From Escherichia coli (GTDB lineage Bacteria > Pseudomonadota > Gammaproteobacteria > Enterobacterales > Enterobacteriaceae), in the NCBI RefSeq assembly GCF_017348835.2, contig NZ_CP071375.1: a DNA stretch of 64,000 nucleotides; one strand, 5' to 3'. How positions within the stretch are numbered: position 1 is the stretch's first letter; each line of letters opens with the position of its first letter. Shown here one piece after another: positions 32,626-35,612 of the stretch. The notes below the pieces were generated by a model. That model searched no databases. It was not told where the DNA came from and worked only from the letters and a program-made list of their open reading frames with translations. The translations under genes and the position numbers were made by a program.

Positions 32626-34947
32626 ATGATGAATGATTCGTTCTGCCGCATTATTGCGGGTGAAATTCAGGCGCGCCCGGAACAGGTTGACGCTGCCGTT
32701 CGCCTGCTTGACGAAGGGAATACCGTGCCGTTTATCGCACGTTATCGTAAGGAAATCACCGGCGGTCTGGATGACACGCAGCTGCGTAATCTGGAAACGC
32801 GTCTGAGCTATCTGCGCGAGCTGGAAGAGAGACGTCAGGCGATCCTCAAGTCCATTTCCGAGCAAGGCAAACTCACCGATGATCTGGCGAATGCCATCAA
32901 CGCCACCCTAAGCAAAACCGAACTCGAAGACCTCTACCTGCCCTACAAACCTAAACGCCGCACCCGCGGGCAAATCGCCATTGAAGCAGGGCTTGAGCCG
33001 TTGGCTGACCTGCTGTGGAGCGATCCGTCACACACGCCAGAAGTCGCCGCTGCGCAATATATTGATGCAGATAAAGGCGTGGCAGATACCAAAGCCGCGC
33101 TGGACGGCGCGCGCTATATCCTGATGGAACGGTTTGCCGAAGATGCCGCGCTGCTGGCGAAAGTGCGTGATTATCTGTGGAAGAACGCGCATTTGGTTTC
33201 TACGGTGGTGAGCGGTAAAGAAGAGGAAGGGGCGAAATTCCGCGACTATTTCGATCATCACGAACCGTTGTCCACGGTGCCTTCTCACCGCGCGCTGGCG
33301 ATGTTCCGTGGGCGTAACGAAGGCGTACTCCAGCTTTCGCTGAATGCCGATCCGCAGTTCGATGAGCCGCCAAAAGAGAGCTATTGCGAGCAAATCATCA
33401 TGGATCATCTCGGCCTGCGCCTGAACAATGCTCCGGCGGATAGCTGGCGCAAAGGCGTGGTGAGCTGGACCTGGCGCATCAAGGTGCTGATGCATCTAGA
33501 AACCGAACTGATGGGCACCGTGCGCGAACGCGCGGAAGATGAAGCAATCAACGTCTTTGCCCGTAACCTGCACGATCTGCTGATGGCGGCCCCTGCCGGA
33601 CTGCGTGCAACGATGGGCCTCGATCCGGGTCTGCGTACTGGGGTAAAAGTGGCGGTGGTCGATGCCACTGGCAAACTGGTAGCGACCGATACCATTTACC
33701 CGCACACCGGACAAGCCGCAAAAGCAGCGATGACTGTTGCTGCGCTGTGTGAAAAGCATAACGTTGAACTGGTGGCGATCGGCAACGGTACAGCTTCCCG
33801 CGAAACCGAACGTTTCTATCTCGACGTGCAGAAGCAGTTCCCGAAAGTGACCGCACAGAAAGTGATCGTCAGCGAAGCTGGCGCGTCGGTTTACTCGGCT
33901 TCCGAGCTGGCAGCGCAGGAGTTCCCGGATCTCGACGTTTCGCTGCGTGGCGCGGTTTCTATCGCCCGCCGTTTGCAGGATCCGCTGGCGGAGCTGGTGA
34001 AAATCGATCCGAAATCTATCGGCGTAGGTCAGTATCAGCATGACGTTAGCCAGACGCAACTGGCCCGCAAACTGGACGCAGTAGTAGAAGACTGCGTAAA
34101 CGCCGTTGGCGTCGATCTCAACACTGCTTCTGTTCCGCTGTTAACCCGCGTGGCGGGCCTGACGCGCATGATGGCGCAAAACATCGTGGCCTGGCGCGAT
34201 GAGAACGGCCAGTTCCAGAACCGTCAGCAACTGCTGAAAGTCAGCCGTCTGGGGCCGAAAGCCTTCGAGCAGTGCGCGGGCTTCCTGCGCATTAACCACG
34301 GTGATAACCCGCTGGACGCCTCTACCGTTCACCCGGAAGCCTATCCGGTGGTGGAACGCATTCTGGCAGCAACACAGCAGGCACTGAAAGATCTGATGGG
34401 TAACAGCAGCGAACTGCGTAACCTGAAAGCGTCTGACTTTACTGATGAAAAATTCGGTGTGCCGACAGTAACTGACATCATCAAAGAGCTGGAAAAACCG
34501 GGTCGCGATCCGCGTCCGGAATTTAAAACCGCTCAGTTTGCCGATGGCGTCGAGACAATGAACGACCTGCAACCGGGTATGATCCTCGAAGGCGCTGTCA
34601 CCAACGTCACCAACTTTGGCGCGTTTGTCGATATCGGCGTGCATCAGGACGGCCTGGTTCACATCTCTTCATTGTCGAACAAGTTTGTGGAAGATCCGCA
34701 TACCGTGGTGAAAGCGGGCGACATTGTGAAGGTGAAAGTGCTGGAAGTGGATCTTCAGCGTAAACGTATCGCCCTGACTATGCGTCTGGACGAGCAGCCT
34801 GGCGAAACCAACGCCCGTCGCGGCGGCGGTAACGATCGCCCGCAAAACAACCGCCCGGCAGCCAAACCACGCGGTCGTGAAGCGCAGCCTGCCGGTAACA
34901 GCGCGATGATGGACGCGCTGGCGGCAGCAATGGGCAAAAAACGTTAA
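32626..34947 (+). CDS. tex: Tex/YhgF transcription-accessory protein (YqgF/RuvC-like, HhH and S1 domains)
   Basis: 773-aa ORF; C-terminal S1 domain followed by basic tail. Confidence 0.9.
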
Positions 34948-35028
34948 ACGCCCGGACTGGCCCCTAAACCTGCGCGATAAGGCGTTCACGCCGCATCTGG
35001 CAACGAACGCCTTGTCTGACATAAAAGT

Positions 35029-35055
35029 GCCGGAGAATATCTCCGGCATATTTAT
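35029..35055 (+). terminator. Rho-independent terminator after tex
   Basis: GCCGGAGAATATCTCCGGC hairpin followed by ATATTTATT. Confidence 0.7.
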
Positions 35056-35248
35056 TCCACAGCCAAACTCACAATATATTCCGTTAATATTTATCACTTC
35101 ATTAACAACTGAAACCTTAATTAAACATTAGCCAGTCCTGGTAATTCGCTATTCGAATTATATTTTCGCTGCGATATAACCTTGAGCCACATCAACATTG
35201 AGTCAGATTATTATTCAAACCAACATTCGCACACATTTTAAGTATTGC

Positions 35249-35275
35249 TGATAGAAACCATTCTCATTATCATTG
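35249..35275 (+). promoter_or_regulatory. Fur-box-like operator in feoA promoter region
   Basis: TGATAGAAACCATTCTCATTATCATTG resembles GATAATGATAATCATTATC consensus; ~110 bp upstream of feoA. Confidence 0.55.
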
Positions 35276-35384
35276 TACTGTTGATTATTTAATCTCTCCT
35301 TCGTTGGCAAATCATCTGGTCTCATGTCGCTGTCAAACGCCCCATGAGGTAGTTATCCAGTTAATGAGAAACAAGTAGGCACCT

Positions 35385-35612
35385 ATGCAATACACTCCAG
35401 ATACTGCGTGGAAAATCACTGGCTTTTCCCGTGAAATCAGCCCGGCATATCGCCAAAAACTGCTTTCTCTTGGCATGTTACCTGGCTCCTCTTTTAATGT
35501 GGTGCGCGTCGCTCCACTCGGCGACCCCATTCATATCGAAACCCGTCGTGTGAGCCTGGTATTACGCAAAAAAGATCTGGCCTTATTAGAAGTGGAAGCG
35601 GTTTCCTGTTAA
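35385..35612 (+). CDS. feoA: Ferrous iron transport protein A
   Basis: 75-aa ORF, synteny. Confidence 0.95.

Follow-up and report, generated by a model that had tools for sequence, protein, structure and literature searches.

The spacer between tex and feoA in Escherichia coli: the 3' end of tex and the regulatory region of feoABC

We analysed a 64,000-nt stretch of Escherichia coli DNA (hereafter the window, to which all positions refer unless stated otherwise), and asked what occupies the spacer between tex (yhgF) and feoA. We consider it highly probable that the spacer consists of elements that have already been characterised, namely the 3' end of tex followed by the promoter and regulatory region of feoABC. 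Control of feoABC by iron and anaerobiosis through this spacer, which the earlier note on this DNA had proposed from the letters, is correct and long established; indeed, published Fur ChIP-exo, FNR ChIP-seq and ArcA ChIP signals are all located at the spacer. The feoABC promoter is a textbook case of iron (Fur) and oxygen (FNR, ArcA) signals being joined at a single promoter for ferrous-iron uptake. The useful outcomes of the present analysis are a corrected map of the feo regulatory sites in window coordinates, a rigid spacing of 78-79 bp between the FNR site and the -10 element that holds in most of the 75 Enterobacteriaceae species compared, and two minor, unexplained features of the feoA leader that are conserved and may be of interest for post-transcriptional control of feo.

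We propose the following scheme. A REP-like hairpin and an intrinsic terminator (35027-35049) would form the end of tex transcripts, and feoABC would be transcribed from a weak sigma-70 promoter, TTGCTG-17-TATCAT, with its start at about 35279. When iron is sufficient, Fe(II)-Fur would occupy 35247-35280; since this stretch spans the start as well as both promoter elements (-35 and -10), RNA polymerase would be blocked. Without oxygen, FNR bound to TTGAGCCACATCAA would activate transcription from upstream in a class I manner, and ArcA-P, bound further upstream at 35088-35108 (-191 to -171), would also activate. The AT-rich DNA between the sites would be a target for H-NS, and the feoABC mRNA would begin with a leader of about 106 nt, in which a Shine-Dalgarno sequence of the ordinary kind lies 5' of feoA. 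Published experiments, which we mapped here by sequence, have shown that Fur, FNR and ArcA occupy the region and that expression depends on ArcA and Fur; we infer the class I mode of FNR action, and occlusion as the mode of Fur repression. A conserved block at +1 to +16 and a palindrome in the leader fall outside what this scheme explains.

The tex-feoA spacer and the 3' end of tex

The spacer extends from 34948 to 35384 and is exactly 437 bp long, as the earlier note had it: the stop codon of tex at 34947 sets its left edge, and the feoA ATG lies at 35385. The ORF list and the RefSeq annotation (K-12, PE164) agree on tex/yhgF (32626-34947, plus strand), which encodes a Tex family RNA-binding protein; the ORF list and RefSeq annotation likewise give feoA (35385-35612, plus strand; 75 aa), with feoB (35629-37950) and then feoC (37950-38186) located 3' of it. 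The 521 bases around the spacer are 100% identical to those of E. coli strain PE164, and of 5426 complete E. coli genomes, 5425 contain this 521-base query, with the annotation always yhgF (Tex family protein) followed by feoA. The spacer of K-12 measures 456 bp, compared to 437 bp here, the difference being a 19-bp indel in the REP zone just 3' of tex. Relative to K-12 MG1655, this zone (34975-34995) has several substitutions in addition to the 19-bp indel, and within E. coli no other part of the spacer varies as much. 3' of the REP zone, the window and K-12 differ by scattered single-base substitutions only, including one within the ArcA site (35097) and two just 5' of the start site (35276-35277); the core motifs are untouched, and the FNR box and the Fur box are identical in the alignment.

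Strong AT-richness, a second property noted earlier, is evident from a GC fraction of 0.31-0.39 from about 35000 to 35300, compared to 0.5-0.68 in the flanking genes. The description of the spacer as unusually long is accurate for its surroundings, where it ranks second among the 34 spacers in 40 kb, but not for the locus: tex-feoA spacers across 75 Enterobacteriaceae species range from 256 to 745 bp, with a median of 411, and a long spacer at this position is the rule across Enterobacteriaceae.

The tex-proximal part of the spacer includes a REP-like element and a terminator hairpin. Both had been recognised in the earlier note, which listed the terminator first; the order is in fact REP-like element, then terminator. 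The REP-like element (34971-35008) is a weak match to the REP-derived Rfam family naRNA4, with a score of 24.7 bits where the gathering score is 59.5; the homologous Salmonella locus reaches 46 bits with naRNA4. The likeness of 34971-35008 to the REP consensus was judged by eye. In the predicted fold, the element forms part of a hairpin with a 12-bp stem at about 34976-35016. The putative intrinsic terminator of tex (35027-35059, plus strand), identified with a terminator scan, consists of a GC-rich stem-loop at 35027-35049, with a 10-bp stem that includes six GC pairs and a 3-nt loop, followed by ATTTATTCCA (an ATTTATT tail). The region 34948-35060 as a whole folds at -47.3 kcal/mol, with z = -5.68 relative to shuffled sequences. 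In an Enterobacter cloacae locus (L078, positions 1167-1265), a long, GC-rich, perfect palindrome is located just 3' of tex and gives a string of spurious microRNA-family matches; this palindrome is probably a repeated extragenic element of Enterobacter.

The feoABC promoter and its Fur, FNR and ArcA sites

To place published K-12 coordinates in the window, we used an offset of 3,502,800 relative to U00096.2, fixed by an exact match of the published ArcA 21-mer. The ArcA site is listed at -191 to -171 from the mapped feoABC start (Park et al., 2013; Table S6), which puts the start at about 35279, a position derived from the offsets in the published table. The searched text of the Cappable-seq, Kim 2012 and Adams 2021 start and 3'-end supplements contains neither a feoA entry nor coordinates within the spacer. 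With a start at about 35279, the -10 would be TATCAT at 35268-35273 and the -35 would be TTGCTG at 35245-35250, with 17-bp spacing. This putative core promoter (35245-35273, plus strand) was read from the sequence relative to the recorded start; the promoter scan missed it because the -35 matches the consensus at only three of six positions, which is below the scan threshold. In an alignment of 22 genera, most of the invariant columns fall in the core promoter, and the -35 is TTGATG in most genera. The anchor CCATTCTCATTATCAT was located in all 75 species, allowing up to three mismatches. Between the FNR box and the -35, the alignment also reveals a direct repeat, ACAT-N6-ACAT (35223-35236, plus strand; -56 to -43), that is kept in Salmonella, Citrobacter, Enterobacter, Lelliottia and Yokenella, and not in Klebsiella, Kluyvera or Raoultella. 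The repeat resembles an OmpR-family (RstA-type) box. It is possible that the repeat is a response-regulator box of the RstA type, or a contact zone for alpha-CTD.

The Fur operator (35247-35280; -32 to +2) overlaps the -35, the spacer between the promoter elements, the -10 and the start at about 35279, with the overlap calculated from the derived start. These boundaries are those of the K-12 Fur ChIP-exo peak P104 (3538047-3538080), which was detected under iron-replete conditions only and maps to 35247-35280; the Fur-box-like sequence that had been picked out at 35249-35275 thus lies within the region of Fur occupancy. Two 13/19 matches, at 35253-35271 and 35259-35277, come closest to the 19-bp Fur box GATAATGATAATCATTATC. 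With DNA this rich in AT, one 13/19 match on its own does not exceed chance (P about 0.17-0.2), but the cluster of seven overlapping matches of at least 12/19 does (P about 0.01-0.02). The operator is also the most conserved part of the spacer, with 0.89-1.00 identity across 22 genera. Like the Fur-repressed promoters of fepA, fhuA and ryhB, where the operator lies over the -35 and -10, the feo promoter has an operator from -32 to +2 that is occupied only when iron is replete. The feo promoter differs from these in that its match to the 19-bp consensus is modest (13/19), and in that repression is mainly anaerobic. Indeed, a feoA-lacZ fusion is repressed by Fur mainly under anaerobiosis, and this has been attributed to a need for activation by ArcA and FNR (Beauchene et al., 2015); repression would be visible mainly under anaerobiosis because activation is needed first.

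The FNR site TTGAGCCACATCAA (35182-35195), found with a consensus scan, matches TTGAT-N4-ATCAA at nine of ten positions, with a P of about 0.04-0.05 within the spacer. Its centre is at about -90.5 with the start at 35279, or at -92.5 if the start is 35281, the start being derived rather than measured. The same feoA motif, TTGAGCCACATCAA, was reported at U00096.2 position 3537982 (35182 in the window), with a ChIP peak at 3537996 (35196) (Myers et al., 2013). The summit in the main table of FNR ChIP data is at 3538050 (35250), from 25-bp bins; it lies between the FNR box and an element at 35281-35294 that we discuss below, and on its own separates neither from the other. The genomic comparison settles the matter. 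In most of the 75 species, the best upstream FNR match (8-9/10) is at a constant distance of 78-79 bp, measured from the centre of the box to the start of the -10, and this holds also in genera where the 35281-35294 element has diverged. The exceptions are Cedecea, Silvania, one Enterobacter and one Enterobacteriaceae isolate, together with two further loci in which the FNR box and a chance AT-rich match scored equally in the scan. The two Cedecea loci (L069 and L079) appear to have no FNR box at 78-79 bp, and they have a perfect TTGATnnnnATCAA located 240-250 bp 5' of the -10, which suggests that the anaerobic input may have been rearranged in Cedecea. Class I promoters dependent on FNR or CRP have their sites near -61.5, -71.5, -82.5 or -92.5; the feo promoter likewise has a near-consensus box well upstream of the -35, held at a rigid spacing, but the centre of this box, at -90.5 with the start taken from the table, is 2 bp off the canonical phase.

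The ArcA-P site TTGTTAATGAAGTGATAAATA (35088-35108, minus strand; -191 to -171), which differs from that of K-12 by one base, is the site published at U00096.2 3537888-3537908 on the minus strand, and was matched to the window by sequence (Park et al., 2013). The site matches the ArcA consensus at 12 of 15 positions, with a P of about 0.04. ArcA ChIP peaks are located at the feo spacer, and expression of feoABC is 3.7-fold lower in an arcA mutant (Park et al., 2013). A second predicted ArcA-like match, CTTAATTAAACATTA (35116-35130; 12/15), is in the same conserved island, 35090-35129; the ArcA operator may therefore exceed the published 21-mer. The yhgF-feoA spacer is also bound by H-NS (Shimada et al., 2014).

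Conservation across 22 genera forms three islands, covering the ArcA zone (35090-35129; about 0.7), the FNR box (35180-35199; 0.64-0.73), and the core promoter and Fur operator (35240-35289; 0.72-1.00), with troughs of 0.20-0.35 at 35060-35079 and 35130-35179. This pattern of islands and troughs is that of a promoter with multiple inputs, not that of an RNA gene. The locus is the same as the feoABC promoter region of E. coli K-12, and the coordinates published for Fur, FNR and ArcA correspond to the window base for base. Studies of this Fur-repressed, FNR- and ArcA-activated promoter region of K-12 include those of Kammler (1993), Myers et al. (2013), Park et al. (2013) and Beauchene et al. 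(2015). The feoABC operon of Yersinia pestis similarly has a long spacer upstream of feoA, with Fur, Fnr-like and ArcA-like motifs, and no significant DNA similarity between the feo regions of the two species is reported. Unlike in E. coli, Fnr and ArcA are reported not to regulate feoABC in Y. pestis. Two Y. pestis promoters have been reported, P1 located over the Fnr site, and P2 repressed by Fur; unlike Y. pestis P1, there is no promoter-like site over the E. coli FNR box in our promoter scan.

Conserved features of the feoA leader

The feoA leader, from the recorded start to the ATG, is about 106 nt long (35279-35384, plus strand), with the start taken from the offsets of Park et al. (2013). 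A Shine-Dalgarno region, AGTAGG (35374-35379, plus strand), is located 5 nt 5' of the ATG and is nearly invariant in the alignments. Folding of the leader reveals a GC-rich palindrome at 35319-35350 (plus strand), in which G·U and U·G pairs are followed by CUCAUG...CAUGAG. One interpretation, compatible with the regulatory scheme described above, is that the feoA leader is a structured cis-regulatory RNA in which this palindrome is a functional stem-loop that affects mRNA stability, pausing or translation. We regard this as improbable, although several observations point towards it: every genus with a long leader has a hairpin at the same place, with stems that differ between genera (CUCAUG/CAUGAG in E. 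coli, CCGGCGC... in Klebsiella, UUCAUGCGC/GCGCAUGG in Phytobacter, and GCUUUAUC/GAUAAAGC in Cedecea); the mean fold z for the palindrome is -1.3 across 55 sequences; and the palindrome is a GC-rich island in an AT-rich region.

Nonetheless, most tests of a conserved RNA structure argue against this possibility. The whole E. coli leader folds at -21.3 kcal/mol, no better than shuffled sequences (z = 0.05), and RNAalifold gave no consensus structure for the 55 long leaders. An outer helix that pairs 35300-35308 with 35360-35368 is 78% paired across species, but covariation in an alignment that was not fitted to the structure is no greater than in shuffles; since both blocks are conserved, the pairing is explained without covariation. 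A covariance model of the leader module (R1) recovers other genera only at E = 0.3-8, and the alignment fitted to this model has marginal covariation that is dominated by one clade. Moreover, in 36 of 53 cases the fold of the minus strand is at least as good as that of the plus strand; with no folding preference for the plus strand, selection on the RNA strand is not demonstrated. A GC-rich module of about 70 nt, centred on the palindrome, is entirely missing from the Enterobacter, Leclercia, Lelliottia, Silvania and Huaxiibacter loci (L039, L041, L047, L055, L059, L062, L068, L071, L072, L075-L078 and L080). Their leaders measure 38-41 nt from the -10 to the ATG, and the module is therefore dispensable. 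The palindrome is not an attenuator, since no U-tract follows it. Overall, we see a small chance that the ~70-nt module controls feoABC post-transcriptionally in a way not yet described, such as through a stem-loop governing mRNA stability, pausing or the access of a small RNA. Elsewhere in the window, the R1 model has a weak match at 50859-50916 on the minus strand (15.7 bits, E = 0.68), which we judged to be due to chance.

The second conserved feature is the block TGTTGATTATTTAAYC at +1 to +16 (35279-35294, plus strand), which contains the 35281-35294 element, matches neither FNR nor Fur, and has a conservation of 0.80 at 35280-35289 across 22 genera. Comparison of this block by eye with the consensus sequences of Fur, CRP, IHF, NsrR, PhoP, RstA and PmrA gave no convincing match. 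The block could be an operator for a further regulator. Alternatively, the block would be explained by a second promoter, with a -35 of TTATCA at 35267-35272, a 15-bp spacer, a -10 of TTTAAT at 35288-35293, and a start near 35300. Such a promoter would be compatible with the regulatory scheme proposed here, and exactly this sequence, TTATCA-15-TTTAAT, has been listed as a predicted constitutive RpoD promoter in the yhgF-feoA spacer (Shimada et al., 2014). The good conservation of the +1 to +16 block and the two promoters reported for Y. pestis feoABC are also consistent with a second promoter. Nonetheless, we think that one is unlikely to be present: the published site was predicted from a sequence pattern within a SELEX fragment and does not come from start mapping; 15 bp is a poor spacer length; Klebsiella, Kluyvera and Raoultella do not share the block, whereas TTGATG-17-TATCAT is nearly invariant everywhere; and the start used by Park et al. 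(2013) fits the upstream promoter.

Hidden genes and the element at 35281-35294

The earlier note had left room for an unannotated leader or small RNA in the spacer. The start of feoABC is already on record, giving the leader of about 106 nt, and we found no Rfam match, conserved ORF or promoter-like site that would point to a further transcript. We consider it very unlikely that an independent small RNA or small protein is encoded between tex and feoA. Features that might suggest one are the length of the spacer (437 bp), the fact that the tex terminator hairpin scores on the minus strand too in the terminator scan, a weak match to STnc430 on the minus strand (18.3 bits, E = 6.6), and two short ORFs, at 35012-35131 (plus strand; 39 aa) and 35215-35325 (minus strand; 36 aa). 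However, a permissive Rfam search of the window region and six homologous loci yielded REP-like and chance matches only, with no family at its gathering score, and the promoter scan gave no promoter-like site at its threshold on either strand of the spacer. Conservation is lowest (0.20-0.35) at 35060-35079 and 35130-35179, the parts of the spacer that are free of known sites, and the plus-strand ORF begins with TTG within the hairpins at the 3' end of tex. The 2026 RefSeq record for K-12 has no feature in the spacer, even though it lists new antisense RNAs nearby (asompR), and the literature searched mentions neither a small RNA here nor an element in the feoA leader. The searched part of a 3'-end mapping data set also lacks feoA, which is a weak argument given that feo is poorly expressed aerobically. 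Two candidates were considered individually and rejected: the minus-strand ORF at 35215-35325 does not stay open in E. albertii, Salmonella, Citrobacter and others, and the homologous loci of Salmonella, Citrobacter and Klebsiella have no STnc430 match, such that the match in the window is attributable to chance.

Least probable of all is that FNR acts through TTGAT-N4-TAATC at 35281-35294, which the earlier note had likened loosely to an FNR half-site. This element has one perfect TTGAT half-site, belongs to a block that is conserved in many genera (0.80 at 35280-35289), and lies at much the same distance from the binned FNR ChIP summit (35250) as the upstream box does, but it matches only five of ten positions of the FNR consensus (none of five in the second half-site), protein bound at +3 to +16, inside the transcript, would block transcription even though FNR activates feoABC, Myers et al. 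(2013) assigned the FNR motif to 35182-35195, with the peak at 35196, and the fixed spacing in most of the 75 species belongs to this published and conserved box, about 95 bp upstream, with the 35281-35294 element having diverged in Klebsiella, Kluyvera and Raoultella. By a rough estimate, one TTGAT half-site is about what chance would provide in DNA this AT-rich.

Further along the window, between rpnA and bioH (39339-39970), this strain encodes a 122-aa toxin of the MazF/PemK family (39602-39970). Ahead of the toxin gene lies an antitoxin pseudogene of the AbrB/MazE type, which contains an internal stop; in K-12, unlike in this strain, rpnA adjoins bioH.
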